Shown piece by piece: positions 16,146 through 51,000 of a stretch of DNA of 64,000 nucleotides. The stretch is taken from the IMG/VR virus record IMGVR_UViG_3300020419_000005. One strand, written 5' to 3'. Numbering within the stretch: position 1 is the first letter of the stretch; every line of letters starts with the position of its first letter. The DNA comes from a virus. Made by a program: the position numbers and the translations under genes. The notes beneath the pieces were generated by a model. The model was not told where the DNA came from, searched no databases, and saw only the letters and a list, made by a program, of their open reading frames with translations.

Positions 16146-16363
16146 TGGTTTTTCTCCAGGAATGATTTTAATAGAGATTTGATCTCAGTCAATTCAGATT
16201 TTAGCACGCTTACATCAGATTGGAGGTCGGAAAACTCGTCATCTTTCAACTTGCGTTTTTTTGCTGCACTACCATTAGTAGCATTAATATTTAGCACAGC
16301 ACCAGAAGAGGAATCTCGTATTAAGTTTGGATGACCCTCGACTCTCTGGTATTTTGGTTTCAT
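16142..16363 (-). CDS. Small hypothetical protein with C-terminal coiled coil
   Basis: VEGHPNLIRD..SGAVLN N-terminus and LKSELTEIKSLL; follows the VrlC-like gene by a TAATG overlap. Confidence 0.8.
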   Translation of the reverse strand: MKPKYQRVEGHPNLIRDSSSGAVLNINATNGSAAKKRKLKDDEFSDLQSDVSVLKSELTEIKSLLKSFLEKNQ

Positions 16364-25130: not shown

Positions 25131-27002
25131 TTAGTCAGGTTCGTTTCTGATATAGGATGGATAATTTATAAATTGGATAACACCTATGGCACCTGACGTA
25201 CCTCCAGTGATATTTTCGTTCTTATTCCAGAGGTAATTTCCACTATTTGCAACTGGATTTTTGATAACAAGTTTCTTTGTAGTTGCATCCCAAGATTCAA
25301 CTGTTCCTGTTACTCCACTTAAACTTCCTGTTATTGTTTCACTCTGAACAAAGTCATTAGTGTTATTCATTGTACGGAAAGTAAACTCAATAGTTGCAAC
25401 GTGTGCATCTCCATCACCTAAAGCACCTGCAATAGAAACAGTTGGTGATCTAGCAGGAAGAGACGCATCTGTCATTTGGTCTCCAACTTGGAACAATGAA
25501 GTGTTTTGTCCACCTAATGTTTCCTCAATACCATATAGAGATGATGCAATACCTCCATCAAGACTTATTGCACCTGCATAGTCTGTATTAGTATTTACCA
25601 GATCAGGAATACCATCTCCTGCTCCTTGTAATTCATCATCATCTTCAAACTTTTTATCCTGTATTAGACCTATAGGATCTGTTAACTGAACTATATTGTC
25701 ACCTATAGACTCTACTAATACGTGTGGTTCAACACCAGTTTCAGTAGATCCTGCTGTACCTCCTACAAAGTCAATAACTGCTGACAATGTATTAGATGAT
25801 CCACCATCAATAAATGCTAGTTTATCAACTTCAAATGTCAAATACAGTGCATTTATTGCAGGTCTCCAATCATAAACACGAGCAATCTTATTACTAGAAC
25901 TTTCAGAAGTTCTTATAACACGATCTCCCACATTAAAAATATACTGACTGACACCATTAACATCATCTGCGAGTGAATCTAATGTTACTTTTTGATCATA
26001 TCTAAAGTTAACAGCACGGTCACAACCAACAAAAGATGTAGCAGTTTTACCTGTATATCTAATAACTTCACTTCCAATTAATATTTTTCCTGATCCAGGA
26101 TAAGGTGAAGTAGTCTCAACAAATATTGTTTGATCAGATATACCCACATTATTAATAAGACCAGTTATATTATATAAAAATGAGTTAAATGCTTGTCTGT
26201 TTCTAGACCTTTTTATTAAATCAGTATTTCTAGTAAAAATTACTGAAGGTTCTGATGAAAAACCACCACCAGGATCAAGAACATTTATAGCAGTGATAGC
26301 ACCTAAATCTACAGTAGCAACTGCTCTGGCACCACCTCCACCTCCACCATTGAGTAAAATAACAGGAGGAGTTTGGAAATACTCACCTGCGTTCGATATA
26401 TTTACTGCTTTAACAATACCAAATTCATCTACCTCTGCAACACCAGTAGCACCCTGTCCTCCTCCACCAGATACAATAATATTAATATCACCATTCTCAT
26501 AATTTGATCCAGTATCTTCTAAAGATAAACCAGTAAGTAATCCAGTAACAGGTCTGAGTTCAGCACCTGCACCACCACCACCTTCAATTACAGCAGTGGT
26601 TAGATCATTAAAATACTGATCTCCATTCGATAACATTTGAATGTATTGAATAGCACCCGCAGGTGCTATTAATGTTCCATCAGCAGCATATTGATCAGCA
26701 TCCCATAGGATTGCTTTTGCCTCTGCTCCATATCCTAAACCTGCTGTTGTTAAAGTAATTCTAAATGGATCATATCCTTCACCTGGATCTAATACTTTTA
26801 CAGCAGCAATTTGACCATTAGTAATAACAGGTTCAAGTATTGCTTCTCTTAATGGTGTTCCACAATTTCCAACTTTTAATTCTGGAGGGTCCCCTGCGAC
26901 ATAACCAGTCCCCCCATCATTAACAAATACGTCTTTTATACCATACGTACTGTTAAAGATAGGTTCTATAACTGCTCCTGATCCTGGGACTGTTCTTGTC
27001 AT
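25131..27002 (-). CDS. Baseplate-associated structural protein with GxGY beta-sandwich repeats
   Basis: Repeated I..G.GY/F...P.V...GGG.GA units like those in the gp7-like protein; located in the baseplate cluster. Confidence 0.75.
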   Translation of the reverse strand: MTRTVPGSGAVIEPIFNSTYGIKDVFVNDGGTGYVAGDPPELKVGNCGTPLREAILEPVITNGQIAAVKVLDPGEGYDPFRITLTTAGLGYGAEAKAILWDADQYAADGTLIAPAGAIQYIQMLSNGDQYFNDLTTAVIEGGGGAGAELRPVTGLLTGLSLEDTGSNYENGDINIIVSGGGGQGATGVAEVDEFGIVKAVNISNAGEYFQTPPVILLNGGGGGGARAVATVDLGAITAINVLDPGGGFSSEPSVIFTRNTDLIKRSRNRQAFNSFLYNITGLINNVGISDQTIFVETTSPYPGSGKILIGSEVIRYTGKTATSFVGCDRAVNFRYDQKVTLDSLADDVNGVSQYIFNVGDRVIRTSESSSNKIARVYDWRPAINALYLTFEVDKLAFIDGGSSNTLSAVIDFVGGTAGSTETGVEPHVLVESIGDNIVQLTDPIGLIQDKKFEDDDELQGAGDGIPDLVNTNTDYAGAISLDGGIASSLYGIEETLGGQNTSLFQVGDQMTDASLPARSPTVSIAGALGDGDAHVATIEFTFRTMNNTNDFVQSETITGSLSGVTGTVESWDATTKKLVIKNPVANSGNYLWNKNENITGGTSGAIGVIQFINYPSYIRNEPD

Positions 27003-28678
27003 TACCTAATTTCTAATGTTCCAGACATATCGTTGTGGATTGTACACTGATAATATAGAGTGGTAGGTGCATCAAATGGAACTGTAAATGACTGCATAGC
27101 AGTGCTAGATCCACTAATACCTGTAGTATATGGGGTTCCTGATGTTCCAGTTGTGGACTGAATTCTTAGTGGATGAGATGCTCCAGTAGTATTATTGAAA
27201 TCATATGTAAATCCACGATAAAGAATTATAGTAGGATCTGTTGATCCTCCAGATGGTAATCCAGGTCCGTTTACTGTATAGTTTGATTGTCCAACTGCAC
27301 TAAAAACATATAGAAGTGTTGGAGATGGTTTATATACAGTTGCATTATTATATCCTTTAATAGGAGTTGATCCTGCGGGAGCACTTGTACCTTGACGTTT
27401 GAATCCTCTATCAACGTCTTCAAAAGTTGAACCATCGTTAGCAACTTGTAATTCACCGTTGGTATCAAGTTTTATTCTCTTAGTACCAATCTTAATTTCA
27501 GCACCATCTGCTAATTCTAAGTTGTTACTTGCATCAAGTGATAATTTTTTAGTACCACCACTACCAAATCTAATCTCTGCTGATTCTGGAATTTCTAAGT
27601 TACCAGATCCATCAAATTTAATTGCTTTATTAGCATCACCACCAAAACGAATATCTGTTCCTGTAGGTAAATCTAAGTTATTGTTTCCATCAAACTTAAG
27701 TTCTTTAGTAGATCCACTTGCACCAAAACGAATAGAAGCAGCAGCAGGTAGTTCTAATACATCAGAATCAAATGATAATTCTTTACCAGTATCAAACTTA
27801 AGTTTCTGTCCTGCAAGATCTACAACACCATCTTCATCTTGAGTAACTAATTTATTCTTAGATGAAATCTTAACATTACCTGCTACACCTAGTTCTTGAG
27901 TTTGGTTTGCAGTTCCTGTAGCGGTAACTGTAACACTACCACGAGTAGCACCTGCTTCAGCAGTAAATGATGCAAATGCTGCATCAATTTTATTACCAGT
28001 AGAATCTTCAATCTCTAACTCAGTACCAACTTTCATAGCACTGAAACGTGTACGAAGTGCTTCTTCTTGTGTTGAGTTCTCTGATGCTAGTTTAGATGTG
28101 ATAGTACGAGTTGCACCTGTGTCTATACTATGAACAGTATGTTCTACTCTTTTTCTACGAGTAACTTCTTGGTCTGATCCTATAGAAATACCTGTATCAT
28201 CCATCCAAATAGTAGAACTGGATAGATATAAATCCCTAAACTTAAGTGCTGAACTACCTAAGTCATATGTGTTATCGGTGTTTGGTAAAAGATGAGTTGA
28301 AATAACAACGTTGTTTGAACCATTGTTAGTCAAATTAGTAATGGCACTGCCCCCACCGCCACTACCTTGTAAGTCATCACCAGGTTGGAATCTTGAGTTT
28401 GCTGTATTCCACTTCAATACTTGACCATTCGTAATACTCGTTAGGTCTATATCTGTTAAATTAGATGATGCCAGATCACCTTCTGTAAATACTGAACCAT
28501 TCCATTTTAGGACTTGGTTTGTTGATGGTGATCCAACACTAATTTGTAAGTTAGTATCATCACCTAATTGGGTGTATAACTCATTAATAACGTTATTAAT
28601 TTTTATAGCACCGTCTCTGAGGGTATCTCCTGTACCATCATTTGCCGATACACCGACGTTTACATTCTGCTTAGCCAT
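27002..28678 (-). CDS. Baseplate wedge/tail-fibre connector, gp9/gp10-like, with C-terminal cupredoxin-like domain
   Basis: N-terminal MAKQ.VNVG..ANDGTGD.LRDG..KIN (gp9/gp10 N-domain); about 24-aa internal repeats; C-terminal HPLRI...LYYQCTIHNDM. Confidence 0.75.
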   Translation of the reverse strand: MAKQNVNVGVSANDGTGDTLRDGAIKINNVINELYTQLGDDTNLQISVGSPSTNQVLKWNGSVFTEGDLASSNLTDIDLTSITNGQVLKWNTANSRFQPGDDLQGSGGGGSAITNLTNNGSNNVVISTHLLPNTDNTYDLGSSALKFRDLYLSSSTIWMDDTGISIGSDQEVTRRKRVEHTVHSIDTGATRTITSKLASENSTQEEALRTRFSAMKVGTELEIEDSTGNKIDAAFASFTAEAGATRGSVTVTATGTANQTQELGVAGNVKISSKNKLVTQDEDGVVDLAGQKLKFDTGKELSFDSDVLELPAAASIRFGASGSTKELKFDGNNNLDLPTGTDIRFGGDANKAIKFDGSGNLEIPESAEIRFGSGGTKKLSLDASNNLELADGAEIKIGTKRIKLDTNGELQVANDGSTFEDVDRGFKRQGTSAPAGSTPIKGYNNATVYKPSPTLLYVFSAVGQSNYTVNGPGLPSGGSTDPTIILYRGFTYDFNNTTGASHPLRIQSTTGTSGTPYTTGISGSSTAMQSFTVPFDAPTTLYYQCTIHNDMSGTLEIR

Positions 28679-30081: not shown

Positions 30082-33000
30082 TTAGTCGTCGTCAAAGATT
30101 TGTGTAGGTGTGAAGGAACTAAGTGTTGTAGCACCGATGTTAACGGTGAGAACAGCAGAAGTTGATAGAACAGGAACCGCACCATTAGATGTGATACCAA
30201 CACGGAATTCATCATTTGTATCTGCTTGTGTAGTAGCATCAGTTGTGAATGTAGAACTGGTTGCTCCAGTAATATTATTCCAACTTGTTGTTCCGTAATC
30301 TTTCTTCTGCCATTGATATGATAGAGTTCCGTTATTAACATTGATTGCTGAACCCATATATTGATGAGCACCACATACGTAATTAAGGGTAGCAGGAGCA
30401 TCAGCAGCAACCGTGATACTAACACTACGTGTTGTAGCAGCATTAAATCCTGATGCGTAGGTTGCGTAATCTGCAACTTGATTACCGTTAAGACGATATA
30501 CAACACCTGTTTCATATCTACTATTTCCACCGTAAGCAGTTGCATCTTCACTAAAGTAAAGTGCGTGAGTAGAATTACTAATATCATTTTGATTAAACTG
30601 ATATGTTGCTCCACGTACAAATGTAAGAGTTGGTGCTTCAGCATTTGAAGTAAATTGACCACCAGTAAAGTTGTATCCTTTTCCAGATCCTTGATTATAG
30701 TAAGGATGAGATACAGACTTATCAGCAACTGTAATTGCATATGCAACAAGATTAGATATTGTAACTGTTGCAGCAACTTGGAATGTAGCAGTTTGACCTT
30801 GGTTAACAGTAATATTTCTAGGTGCTTCAGTGATTGTTATAAAGTTCTCAATAACTCCAGTACCACCTGATGTAGGAATGAAGTTAGGATCGTAAATATC
30901 AAGACCACCATTTAATGCAGGTCCTGTAGGTCCTAAGTAATCATCTGCAACAGTTGTGTTTGCGTTAATTGTAGGTAGTGTATATCCTTGACCTGCATTT
31001 TTAACATCAATTCTGGCAACACCGATAAGTGCTTTAATACGTCCACCAAATCCTGTTGAAGATATAACATCAACTTGAGGTCTTGTACTATAACCATCAC
31101 CAGAGTTTGTTAATATTGCGTTAGTAATACGTCCTTTCTCAATAGTTGCAAGTGCCTGTGCATTACGTCCTTTAACAGCACCACTATATTCAAATGTAAT
31201 AAGTGAGTTAGAAGATTCAATAAGAGCAACAGTTCTAGTTTCTTCCTCACCATCAATTACAAGTTCGTCACCTGCTTCAATAGGTGGTACAACTGTTGCT
31301 GCAATAACATCAACGTCAGAACCAACATAAGAGAATGCAACGAAGGTTGAACCTGCACGAGGAACTTCAGAGAATATAATTCTAGAACCAACAATCTCAA
31401 AACCAATTCCAGGTTCCTGTATAACACCATTTAACTGACATATAATATTGTTCTCAGGTAAGATTGTATTTGACTGTACACCATCAGTTAGAGTCAATGA
31501 GTAGAACACTCCATTTAACTTCAAGTTGAATGAGTTACGTAATGAATCAAAGTCGAATGATATATCATCTAATTGTCTTAACTTACCTTTATATACACCG
31601 TGGAATGTTGATCCTATAGCAGGTGCTTCAGTAAACTGAATGTTATCTGAGAATGCAGTAAATGCGTAGTCAGCACCAGGTGGTTGTAAGATACCATTTA
31701 CAAAGATCATCATATGTCCTGCGGGATCTGGGAAGTATTGTGTACCGTTTCCTTGAGTTAACTTGAATGACTTCTGTACACCATCAAATCCTCTAAAGAA
31801 TCTACGTACTCTACCTCTTAATGATCTAGCAGATGAACAAGCACCTTTGAAACTATTATCTCCAATAATCTGTGAGTTCTTCTGGAATGTTCCACTTGTT
31901 CCTTCTAAGTGTAATACTGCACGAGTACCAAACTGTGAAATCTTAGCAATCTTACCAAATGCAGTTGTATCTGTTATTGTGACTGCACCAATAGTTGTAT
32001 ATACAGATGGGAATAGAGTTCCAACTGGTACTTTTGCTAATTGATATTGTGTATTACTTCCAATATCAGATATTGTTACTCCTTCTGGAGTTCCAGTTTC
32101 ATTTGCAACAAATACGTAATTATTATTTGTATCAATTTCAGTAACTGTTACTGTCCAACCAATACTAATACCACCAGACTGAACCTGTAATACGTCACCA
32201 ACATTAAATGTATCACTAACTCCAGTATCAGTAATTAATGCAGAATATGTAAGTCTTGTAATTTGTCTACCGTGTACATATTCACCGAAGTTAGGTAATG
32301 TAACGAACGATTCAATCTCAATAATTTGATCAGTAACAGATCCATAGATAACGTCTTGGGGTTTAAACTCTCCAGTTACTGTGGAAATGTCGTAAGTGAT
32401 TCTACCACTCTGATTATCAATTAGAGCACCATTATTGTTTCTAACAATTAGAGCAGTTGCTTTAGATCCAGTTGCAGTAGAGAAGAATTTATCAGTTGCA
32501 ATAAACTCACCTTGACGGAAGTTAACAAGAACTCTATCGTGGTCACTAGCAAATGTACAAGTACCACCAGATGTAACACCTTCAATAGTATCACCTGGAG
32601 TAAATGTTCCATTGTAATCAATTAGTTTAATATATGTCTCGTTGTCAGTAGCAAGAACTTTACCAGTATTTGATGTAGCACCTTGAACAACAACCATCTC
32701 ACCATTCTGAATCTTGATTCCAGTTCCACCACCTTGTGCAGAGAATGTATTACAAGTCATATACTTCGCTTGATACATAATATCTGCTAGATTATCTTCC
32801 ATACGAACAATCTGAGCAGTTGCATTTGATGTACCACCGTAGATAACATCAGCAAGGTTAAATCCTGCTTTGATTGGTGTTGGTACATCACGTGTTCCAT
32901 AAGTTGTAGGTACACGATCTACACCTGGATCTACAGCAACAGCAAGTGTATGTAATTGTGATGCAAGACCTGGACTTAGAACTAATGGTTCACCATCAAT

Positions 33001-36000
33001 ATATTCTGTAAGAACTATCTTAGAAGATGTTGAATTTGGATGAATATAGTAAACTGTTCCATCAAGTTCTGGAATGTTAGATCCAAGAACAATATACTCA
33101 ACTCTGTCATATGGTTCAAAATTATTAGCAACATTAATAACTCCATCATAAACAGCAACACCTGCATCGAACTGTGTTCTTAGGTATGTTGTTGGGAATT
33201 GTGAGTATTGTAATGCAGTTAATATTAAATGGAATAATTGATGTAACTTATGAGATGCAGTTATAGTAGGACGTAATTCTCTATCAGGATTAGTTCCATC
33301 AAGTGAATAAAGAGGTTGGTTAGCATTTACACCAGGATCAGGTGCAGTTCCTAATAAGATATGATCCATCAACTCTTTAATCATTCTTGCGTGATAAAGA
33401 AGACGTGTTCTAAAGAGTGTTGGGTATGCTACAAAATTACCATCAGCATCAAACCAAGAGTTAACTAACTGTAAAGTTCTAGCATTACCGTTGGTAACAA
33501 AGTCATATACTATTGCATTTTGTATTGGAACAGCAAATGTAGCATCTCCTGCATATCCAGGATACTGAGTTAAAGTTTTTTCATATGATTCTAATTGAGT
33601 ATATGTGTCGTTATACTTTAACAATCTTGCAGATTGTTTATACATTTCTGTACCACTTCCAAGACCGTGAAGAAGAACTTTAAATAATACGTGTGCAGCA
33701 GATGTCACATCATAACAAGTTCCACCTTTATATACAGTGTTGGTAGTGACAGGTGCAGTTCTTGTTATAGTTGCAAGATGACTACCATTACCCGCAGCAG
33801 CAGTTTCAACAGTATTAATAAGTATCTCCCAAAGGGTATTAATCGCAGAACTTTGTGTGGTGCAGTTTCCACTACCTGCTGAATCGTAAGTTATAGAAAC
33901 ATCACGTCTAATAGCACGTTCACCTGTAAGCGGCCATTCAGTTGGTAATGTTCTTGTAATCCCAGTCATATATGCTGTAGGATTACTTGTATTACTACTA
34001 TCAAATAGATTGATAGGAATATTCATCAATGTTGTTATAGATGCTGCCTCGTTTACACAACGAACTCCACCACCACCAATAATGTATTTTATAGCATTGG
34101 TATTAGCACTTACAAATGCGTGTTGATGATTACCACCATATTCAACAGCACCAGAAACAGCACTTACAAATGTATGTGGATATTGTTCGCTTGTAGGTGC
34201 AGGGTTTACATTAACCTTAATACGTCCATCCTTAAATCTAACTCCATCAGTAGCACCAGATATAAATGTGTGAGTGTAATTTCCACCTGCACTGATTGCA
34301 TTTTGTGCAGCATTTACAAATGTATGAGTAGTTACGTTAGTAGATGGAGTTCTTCCAGATGCTAAAACATTAACTGTGATTGTTGTTTGACCAACTGCCT
34401 TAACTGTTAAAGGAACATCATATGCTCTATCTTTCTTCCAAGTAATATTGTTTGTACCAGAAGAAACATATGTGTGTGGTGTAGTATTTGTTGAAGGTAT
34501 TCCAGTAGATAATAAAACTTGAACTTTAAATGTGTTGAAGGTTACATCAGAAATTTCTAACCAAGAATCAGCAGCAGGGTCAGTAGCACGTGGATATGTA
34601 TGATTTGTTTGATTGTTATCTTGACCACAAGTAAATGTTAGAGAATCAGTTGCAATCTTAATTTGATCACCATTTACAAATCCGTGTTGAGGAACAGTCA
34701 ACTGCATCATACCTGTAGAAGGTTCATATACAGCACCAGTACTCTGATGTATTGTAGTTGTTGTTCTAGGATATGCGTGCTCAGTAGCATTACTATCTTC
34801 TGCACAAGTAAAGATCAATGAATTATCAGCAATCTTAATATGTGATCCAGGAACAAGACTATGATTACCGATTGTGATAACCATATCTCCTGTAGTAGGA
34901 CTGTACTGAACGTTAGATGGAGTATAATTTAAAGTATTTGTAGAACCAACGTTTACATCAAATGTATTTGTACTTACGTTACTGATTGTTAGATACTGGT
35001 TTGAAGCAGGATCACTAGGACGTGGATATGAATGAACACTATAATTGTTATCCATTGTACAAGTAAAGTTCAATGAATTATTAACAAGTCTTATCTGATC
35101 ACCATTACTAAATCCGTGCTGATTAACTGTAAGAGTCATAGCACCAGTAGTAGGTGAATATGTTGCTCCTGTTGCAGTAAATCCAGAATCACTTACTTCT
35201 AATACTTCTAGAGATTTACCACTAGCATAATCACTGGAACGAGGGTAAGAATGGTTAGTTGCATTACCATCTTTTGTACAAGTAAATGTAATTGCATTAT
35301 CAGGTAATTTAATGTGTCTACCAACATCAAGATTATTTGTACCAATATCTAAGAATAGATTTCCAGTTGCCTCTTCGTAAATTGCATTAGAAACATCGTG
35401 AGTTCCATTAGCAGTAGTTCCTACATTTACTGTAAATGTGTTAGTGGTTGTTGCTGTAATTGGTAGTAAAGCACCACTTGAAGGATCTAGAGAACGTGGA
35501 TATGTATGAGTAGTTGCATCATTATCAAAGTCGCAAGTAAATGTTAATGAATTAGGATTAATTTGAATACTATCACCTGTTGTTAATATGTGACCATTAA
35601 CAGTAAGTCTTAAGTTACCTGTGGTTGGGAAGTATTCTGCATTTGTTGGAGTTAAGTTACCTGTTTGTGTATTTGTTCCATCAATAGTAATACTTGAATC
35701 ATACTGAGCATATCCTTCTGTTACACCATTAATTGTAACAATTTGCTGCCTCATTATCTGTATTGCAATATCTCTTGCTTGCTCAAAGATATACTTAACT
35801 TCTGTTGCTTGATTACTAATATGCTGTATAGCATTTCCGACTGTAATGTAGAACTCACTTGAATACCACATACGGTTGTTACCACCGTGCTTTAAGTTGA
35901 ATACTAATGCTTCAAGTAAATCTACAACGTCATCAACACAAGACTGATAATTATAACCACCAGAGAATGCCAAACTAGCATACTGTGACATACCACGACC

Positions 36001-39000
36001 AACAGCAGTTGTAGCGATAAATCTTATATTATTTTCAATTTCATTTGCAGCATCATAGTAACCATTAGTTGTAGCATTATTATAATAATCAGGTCTCTGT
36101 ATTGCTTGTCCTAATCCACCTGTTGCTGTCTCACTCTCGTAGGGAGTAAACCCTAAACGGTTTCTGATGGTTAGGATTGACATATCTCTTGCTAACTTAA
36201 ACGCATAGATTGTCTCTTCAGATTGAGCACTTACGTGAGTTAACGCTAAGTCTGTATTTAAATATAATGCAGCAGCATCATAGGATTCACTGTTACCACC
36301 GAATCTTAAATCGTGTGCTACAGATTCAATAATATCAACAATATCATCTTCACAGTTGACCTTACCACCTGGAACTTTAAACTTCTTAGATTGTGCAAAA
36401 GATGTCTTAGTTAGAATATCAACTGCTTCACCTGCAATAGTCTTAGCATTTTGCTCTAAAAGATTAGCAGCGTCAAGATCTCTGTCAGATCCAGTATATG
36501 CTTTAGGATCTATTGTAATAGTATCGTCACGATAAACAGACTCATCTGTGTATAGCATCTGATAGTAATCAGAGAAATCGGCAGCAACTTGAGCAGGGTT
36601 TTCATTTCTACCAATCAATAAACCTTGTATTGCTTTTTGTGCCAACTTCTTAGCATATTCAATCGCATCAATCATTGCAAGCAATTCATCTTCAATATAG
36701 TTGATGTTAGTCTCATTATCGAGATAACTATCAATCATTGCTTGTGTTTCAAAGTTACCACCAGTGATCAAGTCACCTGCAATAGCAGGAAGTATATGAT
36801 CTCTAATATCTCTTACACATTTTGCTCTATTAGGTATTGTTAGTTTATTTACTGTTGAGAAACCAACTTGTACTTGATATTTGTTTTCAATATAAAATAC
36901 TGACTCATCAGCGATTGCTTTTCTATTAAAGTAAATTAAATCAGCACCATCTCTGAATCTATGACCTGTAGGTCCGATAACATCTAGTAGATCATCTACA
37001 AGAGTCATAATATCAGTTTGTATCTGTGAAGATGCAGGAGATGAGAAGTAATTAGGAACACGAACCTTATATGAATAAGTTCCATCTAATGTTGTTTCAT
37101 CTAATGTAATTACATCGATACAAAGTTTTGCAACTTCTCTCCAAGTATAGATTGACTGTAGTTGCTCACCACCAATATGTTGTAAAGAACCTGATCCTTC
37201 AATATAAGCACGACCAACAATAGTTGTTTGGAAGTTACCACCAGAAATTAAGTCATCAATAATAGCAGGTATGATGTATGCTTTTGTATCTCGTAAACAT
37301 ACATTAGAACCATACATTGATCCACCACCATCACCAGGAATTACAAAGTCTGGGTATCTTGCTCTTAAACGACCAACTGCTTCTTCAGCAATATAATCAA
37401 TATTCTTACGTATAACTTCAGCACATATTCTATATTCTTCACGACTAAGATCAACACCTTCAGTAGTAAGTTCAGAACGCCATAACTCAACTTCATCAGC
37501 AGTAGCAGTAGATATTATATGATCAACGTATGTTGCATATACTGCACTCTGTTCCATAGGGAATGGTGCTTCACCAAGAATTGCGAATGATATGTTTGTA
37601 CTACTTGTGAATACAATAGGGGGAGTAAAACTACTATTGTACTGGGAAATTCCTTTGCGAATAATAAGGTTATCAATCCAACCATTGAAAGGATTAGCAT
37701 TGTTCCATCCTGCACCAATAGTGATCTTACTATTTGCATTATAATTGTTTGTGTCAGTGTATGTACCCATCTGCTGACCATTTACAAACAGTTTAGTTAC
37801 ACTTGTAGAACGAGATACTGCAATATGATACCAGTTATTAATTGTAGTAATAGCAGAACTAACAGTAATTACATCACTTGCACCTATAGATAAACGAAGT
37901 GACTGACCAGACATTAATATGCCTAACTTAGTATCGGAAGATGACTCTCTAAGATCAATAAGTCTCTGTGTACCAGTAACAGAAGCAGGACGTATCCATA
38001 ACTCCATTGTATAATCACCAGTAGCAGCATCTGCTCCATCACCAAATAATACAGCGTCACTTGATGGGAAAGTAGCATAAGAACTTGTACCACTGAACTT
38101 CAATGAACCAGAATCAGTTTTAAATGTTAATTTATCTTGAGTTACATTCTGATATGTTAATTTAGAGTTGGTTATATACTCACCCTTTTGTAATACACCA
38201 CTAATCTGTTTAGAGAAGATCCATTTGTTACCTGCATTAGATCCAATAACATCATATGTTGCACCCGATGTAATTGCTTTTACAGTATCACCAAATACGA
38301 AGAATCCACCAGATGATTTATCTTGATAAGCGTGTTTAGCACAACGTAAAGTTTCTCCATCTACAAAAGCATAAGGAGGAAGAACACGAGGTACATTAGT
38401 AATAGACCACTGATATGTTGCAGGAGTGCCACCTGTAGGGTCCTCTAGAGTATCTGTAATGATTCTCATATAGGATGTTATAGCATTTGCCTGATTAACA
38501 CAACTATTAGTATATCCTGCTAATGCAGCAGAAGGTGCAGTCTCAGTTACTGCTGCTTGGAATGCTGCTACTGTTCCTGGAGATGCAGTTGATCCAAGAT
38601 TAGTAATCAGAATATTCATTAACGTGATAATTGCTGATTCTACAGTTGTTTCATCAGCGAGTTCTGTGCCAGTTACCTGATTCCAATTATGAGATCCTGC
38701 TTTAGTCCAAGAATCATTTTTCATTACTACAATAGCAATCTCTCTTGCCTTAGTAAAAGCATTTACAATGGTATCTCTATCACCAGATGTTACACCATAC
38801 TGTAGAGTTTTCTTAGTTGCTTTATATACAAAGTTATTACCACCGTGTGCCAAGTTATAAACCATTGCTTCAAGAACATCAACAATATCAGATAAGCAAT
38901 GAACATCTCCACCCGATACGTTATATCCTGGATTTTGTGTCTTAGCATAATGTAATGCTTCATATGCAATAAACCATTTGTTATTAAGAATTAGATCTCT

Positions 39001-42000
39001 TGCACCACTGTGACTAGCACTTATAACATCAAACTCTGCTGTAATAGTAGGATCTTTATATTGTGGTAAAGTGGTTGTATTTACACTGATAACTTCATTA
39101 CGGATACATTGTATTGCTAGATCACGTGCTTTATTAAATGCGTATATTGTTTGTGCTACCTCACCATCAACGTGATAGATTGCATTACCCTGTACATATG
39201 TACTAGCAGCATCCCAGATCTCTGAGTTACCATCAACTTCTAATTGATATGCAACTATGTTTAGAATATCTACAATATCATCTTCACAATCTCTGTCTCC
39301 ACCTAATGATGGGACTGTAAATGATGGATAAAATGCTTTCATCAATCCAACTGCTTCTTCAGCAATGAATCTAGCATTCTTTCTTATCAATACAGCAGCA
39401 TCAAATGAACGTTGATCGTCTACACCTACTAATGAAGCGTTATCATAGTAGATTTGTTTGTTACGTATTGAGTCACCTGCTGTAAATTGTGATCCTGACA
39501 AGTAATTATATCTAATTTCTTGGTTTCTTACCTCTTCAAAGTCTAAGAAGTCTTGGTTATTAGCAGTTCCTTCATTATATAATTCTTCTGGGTTAATAAC
39601 TGTCTCAGAAATGTTATCTAAGATAGTATTTGGATAGGTAATTGAAGGAACACGTTGGAATATAAGACCAAAGAATGATGATGGAGGTGATAAATCAACA
39701 GTATCAATGATTTGTTGAGATGTATCATCGGTATATGGTGCAATTACAGAGACTCTTGCAGCAATTTTAGATGCAGCAGAGTATATTGTGTCGTTAAATT
39801 TGATATTAAAGTCACCAGTTTCAAATTCAGAGGTACCAGATGTACGAGAAACCACTAATCTAGCATCTACAGTACCATCTCTAAGGTTATTTTCTTCAAT
39901 TATTGCAAAATCACCTGCCAAATTGGTTATTCTTTCACCTTGTTCGTAAATTGTCTTGCTAGTTAGACCATTTACAGCACTTAATACACCATCAAATCCA
40001 GTAGATGATGCTAAAACATTGTCATTTATTTGGAAAGTACCTGCTTGATCAATAATATCGATATAATCTACACCAGTATCAATAACAATAGCAGTTCCTT
40101 CATTCTGTAATGATCTTATAGGTTTTCCTGTTGTTGGGAAGATACCAGATGTTGAACTAAATGTGAATCTTGTTATATTAATTTGAGAGAATGTAAGATT
40201 TCTAAACTTAATTCTTGAAGGTGCTTTAGGTGGTTCAGAAAATACAACAGATGGACCAGATGTTGTAAATGCAGTTCCAGGTGACTGAGCAACACCATTA
40301 ATAAGAATCAATAATTGATCATCAGTTGCAGTTACAGAATCACCTTCTACTGTCAATGCAAATTGTGTCTTAACACCATTAAAATCATTGTCAATATTAT
40401 CAAGTTTTTTAACAATAGAAGTTAAAATTTCTTCAGAGTTAGTAAGTCTTCTTTGTCTGAATAGTACTTCAGTATTATTAAACTCTGTATATATTGGTTG
40501 TGAGTTAGCAAAAGATGTAATCTTATTAATATTAGTAGCACTAAAGATATTAACTTCTTTAACAAGATCAGATACAACTTTTCTTCCTGATATATCTTTA
40601 CCTGCTGCAAGTGATAATTCACCAAACATATTAAATCCAGTTGGGTGATTAGTTTCAAGAATACTCTTTCTCCATTCGTTAATAGGAGTTTGAGATTTAA
40701 TAACATATGAGAAGTTTTGGTAGAAATAAGAGTCTTGAATCTTCTGTACAATCTCTGATGGTTTACCAACGTCATCAATAAATTGACCAGTGGTAGTTGT
40801 CATTGAGTCAATATTCAATGTACCACGAGCAATAGATAAATTATCGATCAAACCAGATGCACGAGATACCTGTGCAGTTACACGTTCTCCAATAGTCCAA
40901 GTTCCAGTATAATTTTCTAATTTAAGTATTCTAGGTCCAATCTGCCAACCTTCATTTTCGGAAACATATCCTGTTGCAGTAGCAGTTTCTAGAGATGAAC
41001 CTTGATATACAAGTTCTCCTCTTAAGAAACGAGATGTTTCTACAATAGCAGTTGCTAAACCACCAAATACCTCAGTAAGAAGAATCTGACGACCATCACC
41101 CTGAGTCAAGAATGTTATAAAGTTACCAGACTCAGCATCAACTTGTGTCAATGCTATTCTAAGTTGATCTGCTTCAAGTGAATTTGCTTCACCTGCAATA
41201 GCATAGTAAGTAGTTGTAGAACTTAAACTGACCAAACCTGCTGAACTTGGTTTTGGTAGAATTCCAATAGTAGATCCTAAGTCTTCTGCTCTAAGTTGAA
41301 CAGCAGCACCAGTTGTAATACCGTGTGGGAAGTTAAATTGTAGATAACCTAAATCAAGGTTTACAACATAGTTAAATTCTGATTTAAGTGTTACAGATGG
41401 TTCAGAAGAATATCCAGATCCAGGATTCTTAATTATGATTTCATTAAGTCTATTATTTTTGATTATTGCTTCTGCTTCAGCACCTGATCCACCACCACCT
41501 TCAATAACAACTCTAGGAACTGATGTATAACCAGAACCAGGATTAGTGATCTTAATTTCTGATAAAAGAGCAGTATTGAATAGTTGTAAGTTAACTGGGA
41601 ATGTGATCTCAGGACGTAAGGTGTAATCGTGTGAATATCCGAAACCAAATTCATTATTCTTAAGTTTCTTAATCTTACCAATACTTGCACCTTGTAAAAA
41701 TACAGATGCACCAGATCCTTCATTAGGAATTACAACTTCTAAGTTACCACCAGAACCTTGTAATAAATTACCTAAAATTCCTGGAATTGTATCAATATCA
41801 ATAGATGCTGTTGTGTATCCTTTACCTGGAGATGTCAATACAACATTAGTAATAACACCAGTTAATTCACCATCATCTGAAACTGTAATATTACATAAAC
41901 CACCTTCACCGTCTCCTGCAATATTAACGTTATAATAGATGCCATTAATATATTCTGTACCACCAGATAAGATACGAATTTTCTCAATTTCTCTATCAGA

Positions 42001-45000
42001 TGATATATCAGTAACAATAGGTAACTTCTGATAGAAACCACCTGGGTTTACAAGTTTAATATTTGAAATAGGACCTATTGCTTTAGTAGAAGTTGTACTA
42101 TAAGATGCTCTTGTAAGTCCTGTCTCAGTTGTTCCTAAAGGAGCATTTGTTTTTTCTGGTTCTACAAGAAGTGGGAATGTAAATTCAGTATCAGATAATA
42201 TTGCATTAATTCTAAATGTACCTTTATAAGGAGTTTGTATAACGTCAATAAATGATGCTTCACCTACAGGAGAATTAGATGGAAGAGTTCTTGATGGATC
42301 AAAGTAATATGAAATGTTAGTAACATCGTCATCAACAATAAACTTAACAAGTGGTTTAGGTGATGTTTGGTCAGTTAAACCTGGGATACCTTCTCTAACA
42401 ATGTTTACAAAAGGATATTCCAATTTATATTGATTATCCTTAGAGAATGACATATAATATCCAAGGTTAGATGGATCATCAAGGTCAAATATGTACTGAT
42501 GGCGACGAACAAATAATAATTCTGGATGTTTAGCGTAAATATTAACACTTCCAATAGTAGAACTTACAAATGTAGGATCTTGTACAGCAGTTGATCTTAA
42601 ACGATATATAAATCTTCTGCTATCGAGAACCTCTTCTACAAAGAATGATCCACCATATTCAGTTGTTGTAAATCCTTCAACAAATATAATTTCGTTTGCA
42701 GTAAAGTTATGCTTACTATTAGCAACACAGAATACTAAATCTGTAAATGTTAGTGCACCAGATGGTATAACATCTTTTGCAAGGTTAGATGTAAGGTGGA
42801 ATTTCTTAACACCAACTAAACCTGCTATTGTTATAATTTTACCAGTCGCATCAAATGTGGCACTTATACCTACAGCAGCAGCGTCAAGAGTGTCTCCTTT
42901 AATAAAGTTTGAATCTTCATATACTCCTTCAATTTTTATAATATAATCTTCAGCAACAAATGGTTTCCAAGTAGCAAATTGTCCTAGATTACCACTAGAG
43001 TATGAAGTGTTTGCTAAATCAACATTAAAACTACCCGCAGGACGAGTATATATCCAGTTGATACTTCCATCAGTTACTGTACCAACAGTATGAACAGGAG
43101 CAGTAGCACCAGAAACTGCTGTTGTCCCTGATGTATAAATCTTACCTGCATTGTAAACTTCATCTCCAGTTGTATAGTTGTTATTTGTAACCCACTGAGG
43201 TATTGTTGTCTCAACTAAGAATGTTTGTGCTATTGTGTTTACATCATTTACACTAGATTTAAGTAATTTTGTAGTATCAAATGTACCAATAATATTACCA
43301 ATGTCAACACTATTGGTTCCAACGTTTACTATAGTACCGTATGCACTAATTACATCTTGTCCACCAATTACAGAATACTGTTGTAATAAAGATCCTTTTG
43401 TAAATGTTGCTGCCTGATTAAATGTTACAGTCTTAACAGCATCAATAGACTGATATACTGCATCACGAATATAGAACTTAGGAATAACAGTTGTACTTAA
43501 TAGTAATTTTTTACCTAGAGGAGTTGGAATAGTAGCAGTTCTAGTTTCATATATTTGATCTGTAGATGCAAATGAGTAAGTTCCTTCAACATTATTTGAT
43601 ACAACATCAGCATAATCAAGTATTTGTAGACCCGCAGGACCTAATGCCCAATCTCCAGATGTAATCACTTGGGTATTAAACGTAAAGTCGTTCACAGCGG
43701 CTGCGACTGTAATCTGCATACCAGTTTGAACAGTACTTAATGTGAATGTTCCAGTCTTAGTTTGTTCTCTATCTAATTTAAAGCAGAATCCAGATACCTT
43801 TTTATTAGATCCAACTGCTTGTGCAGGAGTAAATGTATCACTATATTTTGCAAGTGTTGATACCGATATGTTATCAATATAACCTTTAATAGATGAAGCA
43901 ACTACAGGACTTGATTTACCGAATAAGAATACTGACTTAAGTTGTGTATCAACAGTTGTACTTGTTACACTAAGTTGCTCTATACCATTAGCAAATACTT
44001 TATAAACATATGTACCAACACCAGGACTTGACTTAACAAGAGCAACGTGTACCCACGCTTCATTATTAAATGTTGTCCAGTTAGTAGTAGATGTTGAGTA
44101 ATAAGTATTAGATCCTAATTTTAAAATATATTTACCGAAATTAGCACTACCTGATACACCATCAAGTTCTACTGTTGCGTTATCACCTGCATTTGGAACT
44201 ACTTGTATAATTTGTGGTGTAGTTGCTTGAGCAGCGTATTGTGCTGCACCTATAGCAATCCAAGATTCAATAGTATATGTTGATGATACATCAGCACCCC
44301 AATCTAATGATAATCTTCTAGCAGCAGAAGTAGTATCAGCAGATTGAGCACCGTACTTAAACTTTGATGTAGATAACGCAGGATCACTATTCCATCCTGC
44401 TGTTAAAGTATTATTAAAGGTTTCATCTTCATTTACAGTTGATTCAAAATTTGAAATGAATAATTCATTTGATTCAATCTTATCACCTGCAATTAAAGTA
44501 TCACCAGAATTATCATTTGTAACTGTGGTTGGTTGGAAACCAATACCACTAACCTGTTTTACAGATGAAGCAGTTAGTATATTACTTGTATTCCAAGAAA
44601 CTTTAAATATAATTGCTCTATGATCGTTGAAAGCATATTTAACATATGCACCAACATCAACATTACCAAATATATCAAATTGTACTCCAGTTGATTGTAT
44701 ATCTTCAAATGTTGCATTAGGAGCAAGCATTTTAACTACTGAAGGTGTCTTATAATCAGTAGGTGCAAACTTCATATACAAAATACCTACATTTTTAGTA
44801 TTTGCTATTGAGTATGCTGTGGCAGTTACATATCTAGAACCATAGTCATCAACAGTAATTCTAGGATTACTGAATCTATATGATGTATTACCAAACTGTC
44901 TACTCCACTGAACTTCAATAGTAGCAGTATCATAATAAGTCTCACCAACTACTATTTCACCAGTTCCCGCAGGATCATTAACACCAACAAATATACAAGT

Positions 45001-48000
45001 GTCATTACTTACAAATTTAAGGTCTGTCATCTGTTCAGATCCAGATGTAGTACAGATCTTACGTTTTTCTTTAATAGCACCCTGTGAGTCTAATAAAGCA
45101 ATCCACATATCATCTGGATTAGGTGAGTTAGTATCTGTTGTACCACCAATATAAATCTGACCATCAGAGTCAATAGTCAAAGATGTTATGTAATCTCTTC
45201 TAGTAGAACCAGATATACCCGCAATTTCACGTTGCCATACAGGAACAGCAGTAGGATTATTGAATCCATCAAATCCAGAAGTATATTTAGCAACAACTAG
45301 ATCAGGATTATATGTAAGGTTTACAGAATTAGGTATTGTTTCACCTACAACGTAAATTGAATGTGGAGATGTATTCTCTAAGTAAATTTTATTAAATACA
45401 CAACGTTTATTACCAGAAGCAGGTTGTAATGGTGCCATTGTTCTTGTCCATAACAATCTACCATCACTATTAAACTTAGCAATCAATCCTGCCGAATCAC
45501 CGTCAAGATCATCTGCTTCACCAACAACATAGAAAGTTCTATCATCAGCGATAGCAATATCTTTAATTTTTACAATTTTTTCAATACTACTGTTTTCATC
45601 TAATAATGTAAGAGCATAATTTGCTTTTTTATATCTTTGTGGATGAGAAACTCTAACTTCTGGAGGACTTGATGCAGAATATGCAGATCCAGAGTTTATA
45701 ATGTTGACATTATTAACAGCACCTGATTCCTCTCTAACAAGTTGCAATCTAAAATCTTGACCAGTTCCACTTACTATTTCATAATTGGGTGGAATATCTT
45801 CATTATATCCAAGACCTTGTTGACTTATAGTGACAGTTTCAACACCTGCTACAACTTTTACTCTAAAAGTTTTATTAGTTTGATCAATAATAGGAATACT
45901 ATCGACAATAATCTCATCACCGACTCTTAAATCGTGCTCATCAGCAGTTGTAATCTTTGCTAATGGTGAATCACCAGACATAGATGATGTGTACTGAGAA
46001 ACAGTAATACCTTTTACAGACTCAACTTTAGCAGATGCACCATATCCACCAGTGTCAGCATTATCAAAGAATAATTTATCGTTAACTTTATAAGATATAC
46101 CTGGGTTTTCAACCACAAATCCACTGATTTTAGCGTCTTCAAACTTAGTAGTAGTATCAATCTCAATATCAACTTGTGATCTTGTAGATACTCTAGGGTA
46201 GTAATCAAATAATTGCAGTACAGGTTCTTCTGAAATATAATTTAATTCGTTTTGTTCTAATGTTGATATAACACCATCTCTGTTTGTATCTTCTATTTCA
46301 AAAATAAATTCATCTCCAAGTTCAGTTACAAGAGTATCTGTGTCTTGGTTTGGTGTACGGTCAATGTCAATGTCCACATCTTCATATGGATCACGGAATC
46401 TAACAACATCAGCAGGAATATTTGTTTGTACAGCATCTTGACTGTAATTCCAAGTATCTGGTTGTGAGTATAATTGTGGACCACATATGTATGGGAATAT
46501 AGGTAAACCTGCTTCTGATGCGTCTATAGAAACAAAGTAAGCGTAAGTACCTTCAGGATATTCAGGTGTCTTACAAAAACGTCCATTATATTGGTCTAAA
46601 TCACCATCTTGGAACACATACTCATAATCTTCTATGTAAGTTCCTGCGGGTTTATCTGATAATAAAGGTCCATCAGTACGAACTGGATTAGGGTTAGTAG
46701 CACTATCAAATAACAGTATTGGTTTTACTCTATAAGAAGATACACATCTTTTAATTCCAGATGACTGATCAGCAGCATCAATATAACCATATGGTCCGTA
46801 TATTGGGTTTCCATCAAATGCCCAACCAATAATAGGAGAGTGTCTTAATCCAGATGAAAGTTCTCTAAGATTTCCTGTTGCAGGATCTTTAAATACATTA
46901 TCACCAAGTACATAACGTAATTGTTTAGGATCTGATAAGTGAGCATATTCACCACCGTATTGAGTGTTATAACCTGCAAACACATAACCACGAGAAGGAT
47001 CCATCAGTCCTGATAGTTCAGTTTCTAAGTTTTGTGTCCACTCAAATACATTTGCAGTAAACTGTGCTCCTTGACCAATAGATTCACAACGAATAGTTGT
47101 AAGACCAGTTGTATATCCAATTCCTCTATTTTCTACTGAAATACTTAATACTTTTCCTCTATCTTCACCAGTTTCTCCAATGGTTGCTTTTGCAATAGCA
47201 CCATAACCATCACCATTAATAATAATATTAGGAGGAGATGTATATCCACTACCAGAAGCGATAATAGCAATAGAAACTATACGACCATTAATTATAATTG
47301 GTTGTGCAACAGCACCCTCACCAGAGTTTAACTTAATTGTAGGAGATGAAGTATATGCAGATCCTGCTGATGTTATTGATACAGATTGAATTGGACCTCT
47401 TACAGCAGCAGTAGCAGTAGCACCTGTTCCATTGCCTCCTGAGATGCTTACAGTAGGTGCTGAGGTGTATCCTTGACCAGGTGCCTCAACTAGAACTTTA
47501 CTTACAACTCCATTTGTAATAACAGCAGTCGCAGTAGCACCGAATCCACCTCCACCAACAATAGAGACTAAAGGAGATGCAGTATATCCAGAACCACCTG
47601 CTGTTACATCAACACTGAATAGTGAACCATTTACAACAACGGTTGCTTGAGCATTTGTTCCACCACCACCAGATATTTCAATAAGTGGTTTAGATGCAGC
47701 ATCATATCCTGTACCTGCATTTACAATATCAACACTTGTAAGTCCACCAAATTTAGTCTTAACTTGAGACTTGTAAGACCAAACTGCGACACCATTTACC
47801 CAACAACCTATAGGACCAAATGATAACTCATCACGACGTGATACAGTCTCTACAATTCTTGGGAATCTACTTAATTTTCTTTGGTTTCCTGGTAAGAGAG
47901 CAGACCCAACAAACGGACCAACCTCATAGTTTGGAATACCTGTTGTAGCAATGTAAGAGTAACTTGAGTTGAAGAATGTATTTTGTACATTGGTAGTGAA

Positions 48001-51000
48001 CTGGTTAATTGAGTTATTAATTGCTTCTTCTGTTGATTTACCTTTATTAAGGTCAACAGACATCAAAATATTACCTTGAGGTGCATTAGGTGCAGGAGAG
48101 GCAATCTGATATGAGAATACAGTGTTACTTATACGAGATGTTACAGCAAATGTACCGTTAAACACTGTTGGGTTTGCACCATATATTGTTACAGAGTCAC
48201 CAACAAGAAGACCGTGATTATTTGTAGTATATACAGTTGCAGTTTGATTATTAAGTCCACCTGGTTCAATATTGTTTACAGATATTAATTTTTTAACATT
48301 GTATAACCAAGATGTAACTCTTTGATCTATAGATGAAGAACCAAGAGATGCAACGTTTAATTTATCACTAGGAAGATAATATGAACCAGTATCTGTAAGA
48401 ACTGTTCCTGTTGCTTCAGCAATACCAAGAACACGTAATTTTACTTCAGTATCTAGTCCTCTATTAATATAACAGAAAATATCAGAGAATATTGTTGTAC
48501 CTGCATCCCAATCTTCTACAACACCATTCTTAGAACGTGTACATTCAATAAACTGGTTAAGTGACTTTTCTTTATACTGTATTCTTTCATTATCACCCAT
48601 AATGATGATACCATTCCTTTCTGGCCAACCAATAGTAGAGTCAACAGTAATAATAGACTCAGTTGTTGTTAAAGGTTCTACAAGTGTTGTTTTATAAGGT
48701 ATTGAGAACTTTCCTTCTAATGTTTCTTCAGATATTGATAATTCATAGATTGTTCCAACACCAGTATTGATTGCGATAACGTTTTCAACTAAACAAACAG
48801 CATTTCCAACGCTTGTATCTACATCATCAGCATATTGGAATAACTGAGAGTCTAATATGTCAACAGGACTACCACTTATCAATTCTACACGAATAATAGT
48901 GTCAACAGACCAAGTTGCAGCAGATGGTTTGATTAATTCGTCTTTTGGATAAGAAACATCTACATCTTCAGAAAATAGAACTTTAAATAAGTATTCTGTA
49001 GCAGTCTTCGTACCTTTAGAGACATAAAAATCTTTTATTGTCTTTATAATCTGTGGAGCATTGATTTTAGTGTAATCAATGTCTGCATCAGGTAAAAATT
49101 GACTTACAAAACGTTCGTATAGTGTTTTTGAGAATAAAGAATCAAGGTTTTCAATAGTAACTCCAATCTCGTGAGAGGATTGAATACTTTGTGCTTCTGT
49201 TGTAAATACTTGGTTTCCTCTAATGTCATATGAAGAAACTCCAGAAACACCTCTCTTACAATTCTTAAATTGAGATGGTTTGTACTCAGAACCGTGTGAA
49301 TGTACTGTAAAACCAGTTATTTCTTGAAATCCTACATCGCAAGATGCTGCTGCTGCTTTTGGACTAGCAATAAAAACTTGAGGAGGTTCAGTGTCAGAAT
49401 ATCCATCACCAAAACTTGTTATATTAATATCAGTAATCTCACCATTGAATATTGTTGCAACAGCAGTTGCTCCTGTACCACCAATAGGATTATCAGATAA
49501 ATCTTTTCTATTATCAACAATATAAACAGATGGTGCATCATTATAACCAGATCCACCAGTTAAAAGTTGAATATCAGTTAATTTACCACCTGATACTTTA
49601 ACATCAAGTATTTGAGCACCTATAGGATCAATAATACGACATCTAGGAGGAGTTACATAACCTCTACCAGGAGAGATCATAGATATGCTTGCCACTCTAC
49701 TTTGATTGTCTAAAACTGCTACAGCAGACGCTCTAATACCAATAGGATCAACAGGAGCGTCAATATAAACTATAGGAGGAGTTGCATAGTTAAGTCCTTT
49801 TGTTAATACAGTTATAGATCCATCAATTACTTTACCGTCAGAATCTATTTGTGCATCACTAATAGTTGCACCTTGTGGATTTGTAAAACTTATAGAGGGA
49901 ATAGTATCATATCCAGATCCAGATGATTGTACATTAATTCCAGTTACTTGCCCACTAGCATCATCAATAGTTACAGTTGCTTTTGCAATAGAACCTGATG
50001 GATCAGCAGGAGTGTCAAATACAACTATTGGAGGGTTAGCAGAAGTATAACCTTGACCACCATCAATTAATTGTACATTCTTAATACCGTTTATAAGTGC
50101 TTCAGCAGTTGCTTCTTTTCCAGTAACACCTTCTGGAGTTAAGATAGTTGTTTTTGGAGTAAAATTAATTCTATAACCACTACCACCTTCTTTAACTATT
50201 AAATCTGTAACCTTATTATCACTTACTCTAGCAATAGCAGATGCACCTTTACCAAATTGAGGTGCAATAAGTTCAACAGATCTTACACATACTTTATCAA
50301 GTTCTGATACTGCTTCTTTTAAAATTAAATGATCATTATAAACCGTATAGTCAACGAATGGTATTTTAACAACTCCATTTATAGCAACTAAACAAGATAC
50401 TGTAGATAAAGGTGTATATGAAGCAGTATTTAATCGTAAAGGTAGTATTTTTGCACCATCAAGAGCAAGATCTATATTAATATGATCTAATATTCTAATA
50501 GGAACACTTGTGTAACCTATGAGATACTCAATTTTAGTTACTGTAGTTGATCCTGCAAGGTTTTGAGGAGGAGTTTGGAATCTAATATTTGATCCATCAA
50601 GAAAATAGTCAATATTAGGTTCTAACTGCAAACCATTGACTATAACACGTAAATACTCAACAGAACTTGGTGTAATTGGTGTTCCAAGTAGTTTTAATTG
50701 GAAACTTGTTTTAGTACCATCAAATTGTGATCTTATATTTTCTAATTCTTGTATTTTTTTATCAAATTCTAATTTATTGACACCTGGAGTAAATACAATC
50801 TCTGGTGATTTACTTATTTCTTCATAAAATATAATTTCATTATCAATCTTTATAGTACCGTCTTTCTCAAGAAAATTATCAACAGTCTCTACAGTAATAT
50901 TGTTGTCAGCAGCACCTACACGATCTAATGTTACCGATGAAGAAGAAATAAAGTTAGGATCATATTCATTACTAGAAATATCGGTATAACTTAAGATATT

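Follow-up and report, generated by a model that had tools for sequence, protein, structure and literature searches.

A 64,000-nucleotide stretch of the IMG/VR virus record IMGVR_UViG_3300020419_000005 (the window) comprises late genes of a T4-like cyanophage on the minus strand, and at the position of gp7, the baseplate wedge initiator, it encodes a giant virion protein of 7019 amino acids (aa). This protein holds seven copies of a helical domain of about 125-150 aa each, six of which carry a C-x-x-D motif, and we consider it nearly certain that these repeats are homologous to phycobiliproteins and possess a phycobiliprotein-type fold. In the wider family to which they belong the sequences indicate very strong purifying selection on the chromophore triad Cys84-x-Arg86-Asp87. 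It is tempting to propose that at least the C-x-R-D copies bind a bilin covalently, and we would place this possibility a little short of even. In what follows the window was compared with related IMG/VR records and with isolate genomes.

The six Cys-bearing units are true paralogues, since they find each other in an internal BLASTP comparison with E-values from 1e-24 to 3e-5 and identities of 22-44%. An earlier note on this DNA, made by reading the sequence alone, had listed six cysteines with their motifs, and all of them stand exactly where it placed them (Table 1). The unit that it had described (A..I..N...IA.EAV, a linker, and C-x-x-D...L..GGN) agrees with the eight invariant columns of our six-repeat alignment (N26, I30, A31, C61, D64, L77, G81 and N82), the string that it had quoted for repeat 3 is found at aa 4570-4618, and its seventh copy lacking the Cys was recovered with the family profile. 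The same profile detected no further copy in any of the other open reading frames (ORFs) of the window. The alignment is without any conserved stretch of 7-10 columns. The full Cys84-x-Arg86-Asp87 motif is present in repeats 3 and 4, the only ones to keep Arg86; repeats 1, 2, 5 and 6 have the Cys and the Asp only, with D or S at the place of the Arg, and repeat 7 has no trace of the motif. The count of C-x-x-D in 6/6 units given by the earlier note is correct, but homologous units do not provide independent observations, and the meaningful statistic is the conservation in the wider family. Two of its structural details had to be abandoned: the Cys of AIQCIRN, taken as a beta-155-like residue, occurs in repeat 1 only, and GNCTTQSSAINTLWEILINTV (aa 5758-5778), assigned to helices G/H, falls outside all copies of the domain.

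Concerning sequence homology, the repeat region of the giant protein matches the Pfam phycobilisome family PF00502 with 32.5 bits against a curated cut-off of 22.2 (E 1e-7), repeat 3 being aligned on profile positions 34-84. When the repeats were taken singly, as the earlier note had suggested, the outcome was divided: the region as a whole exceeds the cut-off, while repeat 3 alone reaches 20.4 bits, just under it, and the other five are undetected. A phmmer search of the PDB with repeat 3 returned 35 matches, 34 of them phycobiliproteins or fluorescent proteins derived from phycobiliproteins (best E 0.0075). Against the PDB chains, the best E-value was 2.3e-4 for a profile of the six repeats, 2.5e-5 for one of 85 non-redundant repeats from IMG/VR loci and 1.2e-6 for one of 64 C-x-R-D repeats, and an E-value that improves with the depth of the profile is what homology predicts. 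In every one of these profile searches the best 60 matches were all phycobiliproteins, and in the register of these alignments the Cys falls on Cys84 and the Asp on Asp87, the conserved Asn meets that of helix B, and the G-G coincides with the end of helix E. PF00502 also matches giant ORFs of 7 other cyanophage genomes; among 14 control genomes it found only Synechococcus elongatus at an E limit of 0.01, and at the laxer limit of E 1 a sub-threshold match in E. coli as well. The profile matches begin at phycobiliprotein positions 33-39, and the N-terminal X-Y helical hairpin was not found; nor are the units free subunits of 160-180 aa, being fused in tandem within the 7019-aa protein.

The predicted structures point in the same direction. 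Template-free AlphaFold2 models of repeat 3 are all-helical, with a predicted local distance difference test score (pLDDT) of 78.9 and a predicted template modelling score (pTM) of 0.75; for repeats 3-4 in tandem the values are 84.4 and 0.80, and an extra helix precedes repeat 4. The modelled fold is a compact globin-like core: helix B is kinked, helix E starts at the Cys, and helix F is joined by a short loop to a long final helix. The unit thus would correspond to phycobiliprotein helices B, E, F and the last long helix, with the short loop in place of the F'-G region. All Foldseek matches of the repeat model are phycobiliproteins (E 0.05-0.3, template modelling scores 0.5-0.6). A Foldseek-independent search of 48,161 representative chains ranked phycobiliproteins and the bilin domain of ApcE as 8 of the best 9 (Z 9.3-11.9), with a photocobilin at rank 8; photocobilin globins scored Z 8.2-9.3, globin-coupled sensors about 8 and haemoglobins 5-6. 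The tightest superposition was obtained with 7lj0_B (Z 11.7, root-mean-square deviation 2.2 Å over 119 residues). The similarity to phycobiliproteins proposed in the earlier note, with Cys and Asp aligned on Cys84 and Asp87, is therefore upheld by PF00502, by the profile searches of the PDB and by the structure matches, and the prediction gave a phycobiliprotein-like fold where another fold would have spoken against it.

We then consider the bilin site itself. In 86 non-redundant repeats from loci related to the window, the Cys is present in 61/86 and the Asp in 73/86, and 35 of the 61 Cys-bearing repeats read C-x-R-D. The type-1 consensus, K-C-[KR]-R-D-[IL]-G-[YFH], matches the K-C-A-R-D-I-G-Y of CpcA. 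For the large family we counted 1421 complete domains from the best 150 of 1570 proteins: the Cys is kept in 96% of them and C-x-R-D in at least 1305 (92%), at an overall identity between repeats of about 20-30%. In phycobiliproteins, and likewise in the distantly related BBAG-1/3 globins, the bilin is attached at this motif (PMC10151467).

The 1570 proteins were found when 1.84 billion representative proteins were searched with a profile at E<=1e-3, and some of them hold more than 30 copies. Those that score best belong to the 'short tail fibre' and 'tail fibre' PHROGs of cyanophages, and their matches were confined to records of cyanophages and of uncultured marine viruses; the genomic context of the many-repeat proteins was taken from the PHROG and tblastn matches. 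A tblastn search of 50,697 phage genomes with repeat 3 gave 307 records, all of cyanophages or marine uncultured viruses. In the same genomes a gp6 homologue is present in 459 cyanophage and about 920 non-cyanophage records, and no match to repeat 3 was found among the latter, T4-like as they are. In the BFVD structure library, too, matches occurred only in cyanophage tail and structural proteins. As far as sequences can tell, the domain family is large and is confined to baseplate and tail-fibre proteins of cyanomyoviruses in every collection searched. The earlier note had warned that similar repeats might be equally conserved in phages whose hosts make no bilin; since the family is cyanophage-only, this was not what we found.

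Two observations on the wider family may be added. The metagenomic proteins P0116-P0121, of the cyanophage tail-fibre family and 4200-6400 aa long, have 22-36 phycobiliprotein-like stretches, nearly all with C-x-R-D, and far exceed the gp7-type protein of the window in copy number. In tail-fibre-type giants, full domains are preceded by tandem half-repeats that match only profile positions of about 2-50, from helix B to the P-G loop (Table 1).

Table 1. Features of the window, with related features in isolate genomes (nucleotide positions; those of the window unless a phage is named)
Feature	Position	Strand	Evidence and remarks
Giant virion protein, 7019 aa, gp7 (baseplate wedge initiator) position	30082..51141	-	ORF list; PHROG 701/2885; Pfam Baseplate_wedge, YHYH, Laminin_G_3
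Repeat 1, aa 3899-4034, CEDD	39040..39447	-	Cys3952 codon 39286-39288; hmmsearch E 2.8e-46
Repeat 2, aa 4032-4160, CLSD	38662..39048	-	Cys4082 codon 38896-38898; hmmsearch E 1.8e-31
Laminin_G_3 / ConA-like domain, aa 4361-4492	37666..38061	-	Inserted between repeats 2 and 3; Pfam PF13385 E 1e-20
Repeat 3, aa 4558-4687, canonical C-L-R-D	37081..37470	-	Cys4615 codon 37297-37299; best single PF00502 match; AlphaFold2 pLDDT 78.9
Repeat 4, aa 4714-4855, canonical C-V-R-D	36577..37002	-	Cys4775 codon 36817-36819; hmmsearch E 1.8e-35; extra helix in front
Repeat 5, aa 4873-5007, CEDD	36121..36525	-	Cys4930 codon 36352-36354; hmmsearch E 6.7e-39
Repeat 6, aa 5013-5149, CVDD	35695..36105	-	Cys5068 codon 35938-35940; hmmsearch E 2.6e-37
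Repeat 7, aa 5822-5938, degenerate, without Cys and Asp	33328..33678	-	hmmsearch E 3.3e-17
Beta-rich repeat, five copies, aa ~5180-5530	~34552-35604	-	
Single-helix Cys motif, four copies	38446-38508, 34003-34065, 33808-33870, 33661-33723	-	One is the helix earlier read as 'beta-155-like'
gp25	53255-53668	-	Gene-order neighbour of the giant ORF
gp6	51161-53254	-	Adjoins the giant ORF
YHYH protein (PF14240), 455 aa	28706-30073	-	Directly downstream of the giant gene
gp9/10-like gene	27002-28678	-	Neighbour
gp8	23560-25095	-	Neighbour
Giant structural ORF, 2397 aa, DUF4815	16363-23556	-	Without phycobiliprotein-like repeats
Giant structural ORF, 2050 aa, Mtd_N (major tropism determinant N-terminal) domain	9718-15870	-	Without phycobiliprotein-like repeats
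pcyA, phycocyanobilin:ferredoxin oxidoreductase, 230 aa	2149..2841	-	PF05996 E 6e-50; NCBIfam NF002760 equivalog, 216 bits (cut-off 206)
cpeT	S-PM2 163961-164470; S-RSM4 (L024 4420-4944)		tRNA cluster between cpeT and the giant in S-RSM4
Half-repeats	S-PM2 NC_006820 56026-56412, 166201-166314; Syn1 NC_015288 21453-21698; P-HM2 81203-81313		Profile match

A bilin bound to the virion would need a source, and the phage PcyA assumed by the earlier note is indeed encoded inside the window, as an NCBIfam equivalog. The gene belongs to a five-gene island between g16 and g17, the small and large terminase genes, within the late morphogenesis module, and its product is a possible in-phage source of bilin; a contig related at 97% carries the same gene. 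The end of pcyA abuts the start of the large terminase ORF. Neither the window nor five related records yielded a haem oxygenase, or any bilin lyase other than the CpeT of two of the five. In S-PM2 and S-RSM4, the second giant gene with repeats ('short tail fibre') has cpeT 1-2 kb upstream of it.

Co-occurrence was evaluated on the 16 genomes of Sullivan et al. 2010. Repeats are present in 12/12 cpeT-positive genomes and absent from 3/4 cpeT-negative ones (Fisher p about 0.007). The three genomes without cpeT and without repeats, P-SSM2, S-SSM7 and S-SM2, form one clade on the gp6 tree (98/98), so that the association reduces to a single evolutionary event, and Syn1, which has repeats and no cpeT, is a counter-example; we therefore rejected it as evidence. 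A similar reasoning applies to adsorption, which requires light in P-HM1, P-HM2 and S-PM2 and proceeds in the dark in P-SSM2 and the podovirus P-SSP7 (PMC6628666). Repeats number 6-13 in the three light-requiring phages and none were found in P-SSM2 and P-SSP7 (in P-SSM2 not even at E<=10), but this 4/4 match comes down to the same clade event and was set aside as well.

Taking these data together, we can outline how a biliprotein virion might have arisen and might work. The domain would go back to a phycobiliprotein of the host, with alpha-type subunits such as CpcA as its nearest relatives, would have lost the N-terminal X-Y hairpin and would then have multiplied within baseplate and tail-fibre proteins of cyanomyoviruses. 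While the giant protein folds in the bilin-rich cytoplasm of the infected cell, its C-x-R-D copies (repeats 3 and 4) may take a bilin into the cleft beside helix E, supplied by host pools plus the phage's own PcyA, and the thioether link through the Cys could form autocatalytically, as in ApcE, smURFP and BBAG globins, or be made by a lyase of the host or the phage. The copies with C-x-D-D or C-x-S-D (repeats 1, 2, 5 and 6), and copy 7, which has no Cys, would more probably be structural derivatives. In the mature virion a few dozen pigments would be displayed at the periphery of the baseplate, and their role, the weakest step of the scheme, might be stabilisation of the fold, quenching of light or protection from it, or light gating of adsorption. 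A light-sensing function of these domains is speculative and looks improbable to us; that they gate adsorption by light is a slimmer prospect still. The most general form of the idea would make biliproteins of cyanomyovirus baseplates and tail fibres, their C-x-R-D arrays being chromophorylated in the infected cell with bilins from the host and from phage PcyA, PebS and haem oxygenase, perhaps with the help of the orphan lyase CpeT, and adsorption becoming light-dependent as a result in P-HM1, P-HM2 and S-PM2; to this we give the same slim chance.

Several facts weigh against bilin attachment and the functions built on it. In 29% of the 86 repeats the Cys is missing and the fold-defining residues (N27, D69, G-G-N, Y85 and N119) are all kept, although for this very reason the C-x-R-D site behaves as a separate, functional feature. 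The modelled unit is about one helix shorter than a phycobiliprotein between helix F and the last helix, so that one wall of the pocket may be missing. The D or S that replaces Arg86 in 4/6 Cys-bearing repeats of the giant would set acidic residues at the position of the bilin propionates and would repel them. Distribution is also unfavourable: P-SSM2 has a bilin reductase and bilin genes yet no repeats, and S-SM1 has repeats yet neither reductase nor haem oxygenase. In the co-occurrence check that the earlier note had suggested, the association with cpeT did not emerge beyond one clade. Our literature search found no report of a coloured virion or of a bilin-modified virion peptide in cyanophages. 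About 100-200 bilins per virion, by our own estimate, would give an A620/A260 of only about 0.005, and a pigment could therefore easily be missed. Finally, characterised phycobiliproteins and BBAGs are mostly photo-inert (PMC10151467), which makes a sensor role a further leap.

Alternative explanations concern both the homology and the site. The resemblance to phycobiliproteins could be a convergence or a chance local match between helical repeats, and the marginal scores of single repeats, the modest Foldseek E-values and the fact that a Z of about 12 can be reached between unrelated helical bundles would allow it. Against this, E-values fall steadily as the profiles become deeper with phycobiliproteins always at the top, the registers from sequence and from structure agree, the helix-B Asn kink, the K-C-x-R-D-I-G-Y motif and the G-G all align, and PF00502 recurs in the giants of seven other cyanophages and, among the controls at the E limit of 0.01, only in S. 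elongatus; a chance match is thus very improbable. A more serious competitor, which we regard as quite conceivable without thinking it probable, accepts the descent and denies the chromophore: the domain would now be only a rigid helical building block that spaces or decorates baseplate and tail fibres, C-x-R-D being kept for folding or for packing between domains, for example through capping of helix E by Arg/Asp salt bridges. The residues found in every repeat, Cys-less ones included, are not known bilin contacts; the tandem pTM of 0.80 suggests that the domains pack confidently as a rod-like array; the repeats sit amid inserted adhesin-type modules such as LamG and YHYH; and the loss of Arg86 in most Cys-bearing repeats of the giant, like the silence of the literature on coloured virions, also fits this explanation. 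Yet a small buried position would be expected to drift to A, S or V, and the near-invariance of the Cys in the 1421 domains, with Cys, Arg and Asp retained together in about 92% at such low overall identity, is difficult to reconcile with packing, the more so as the single known role of the triad in all characterised relatives is bilin attachment (PMC10151467).

The Cys might also serve another chemistry, binding a different ligand or a metal in the old bilin cleft or forming disulfides between repeats or between subunits by which the fibre would be locked outside the cell. Each domain has a single conserved Cys and the domains occur as adjacent pairs (r1-r2, r3-r4, r5-r6), the acidic variants C-E-D-D and C-V-D-D would accommodate a cation more readily than a bilin, and virions are extracellular, in oxidising surroundings. 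This explanation seems rather unlikely to us, because the Cys co-varies with the Arg and Asp of the phycobiliprotein site and not with a second Cys, and Cys, Asp and Arg would be an unusual metal site.

Other repeats of the giant also contain cysteines. A different kind of repeat, beta-rich and about 75-85 aa long, is present five times with the invariant core F-T-C-x-x-D-x-N-x-x-x-H-x-Y-P-R, which accounts for the other five C-x-x-D matches of the protein; the Cys and His kept in it may point to a metal site. A single-helix motif starting with Cys (C-x5-6-[AS]-[AI]-x-T-L...) occurs four times, outside the phycobiliprotein-like domains.

The placement of the giant in the baseplate follows the T4 gp7-type order gp25-gp6-[gp7]-...-gp8/gp9/gp10, which is found in the window: in the direction of transcription come gp25, gp6, the 7019-aa ORF, the YHYH protein, the gp9/10-like gene, gp8 and two more giants, followed by neck and sheath-stabiliser genes, the small terminase gene, the five-gene island and the large terminase gene. 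The YHYH domain (PF14240) occurs twice, at aa 1393-1540 of the giant and in the separate protein just downstream. The giant matches the baseplate-wedge profile phrog_2885 with E 0, and Pfam Baseplate_wedge with 25.7 bits, slightly below the cut-off of 27. In S-SZBM1 the orthologue, which bears the annotation 'baseplate wedge initiator' and is 42% identical over the repeat region, was identified in virions from 71 peptides in mass spectrometry (PMC9146016). S-SZBM1 is also the nearest isolate on the gp6 tree (gp6 identity 57-59%). A megablast search of the region against the 50,697 phage records gave no match, a near-identical phage being absent from GenBank, and the phage is therefore uncultured; several IMG/VR contigs carry repeats 97% identical to those of the giant.

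PF00502 is already present in precomputed Pfam annotation on most orthologues, including the S-SZBM1 protein in GenBank/UniRef. The paper describing S-SZBM1 is silent on it (PMC9146016), and a full-text literature search found no discussion of phycobiliprotein-like domains in cyanophage virion proteins. Two puzzles of cyanophage biology have been open for 15-20 years. One, for which the words used are 'remains a mystery' and 'remains unresolved' (PMC3037559), is the purpose of the bilin-synthesis genes and of a CpeT lyase that lacks a known substrate; the other is that adsorption of some cyanomyoviruses depends on light independently of host photosynthesis (PMC6628666). Virion domains that descend from phycobiliproteins, are restricted to cyanophages and keep the triad under selection offer a concrete and cheap test for both. 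If baseplates were biliproteins, light-gated adsorption and the bilin genes would be explained together, and a bound bilin would make this the first phage virion to carry a pigment and would add a new branch to the bilin-binding globins. If no bilin is bound, a light-harvesting protein of the host has been reused as a virion building block, and the conserved Cys-Arg-Asp site wants another explanation.

The giant and its repeats can be set beside several known systems. With T4 gp7 it shares, together with the cyanophage 'baseplate wedge initiator' and 'short tail fibre' giants (PHROGs 701, 2885, 4527 and 5342), the gene position between gp6 and gp8-gp10, the matches to baseplate-wedge profiles and, through its orthologue, the association with virions, whereas the T4 protein has about 1000 aa and no phycobiliprotein-like domains. 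With the alpha and beta subunits of phycobiliproteins (best C-phycocyanin alpha 7efv_A and phycoerythrin alpha 5aqd_A) it would share the globin-like helical fold, to judge from the models, the Asn kink of helix B, the K-C-x-R-D-I-G-Y opening of helix E and the G-G closing it. The phage units differ by the absence of the X-Y hairpin and of about one helix after helix F, by an overall identity of 12-24% and the substitution of Arg86 in many copies, and by their arrangement, since there are 7 (elsewhere up to about 30) tandem copies in virion proteins of several thousand residues as against free phycobilisome subunits of 160-180 aa. The phycobiliprotein-like domain of ApcE (4xxi), smURFP (6fzn) and a far-red protein derived from ApcF (6hrk) are among the best sequence and structure matches. 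In these proteins and in BBAG-1/3 globins, all cytoplasmic, bilin binding was shown experimentally, while the phage domain belongs to an extracellular virion protein and is known from sequence and model. The ApcE domain is embedded in a larger protein, as the phage units are; smURFP and the ApcF-derived protein are phycobiliprotein cores of 132-147 aa able to bind a bilin unaided; and all of them bear CXRD and attach the bilin without a dedicated lyase, as do the BBAG-1/3 globins, distant paralogues of phycobiliproteins (Rockwell et al. 2023, PMC10151467).

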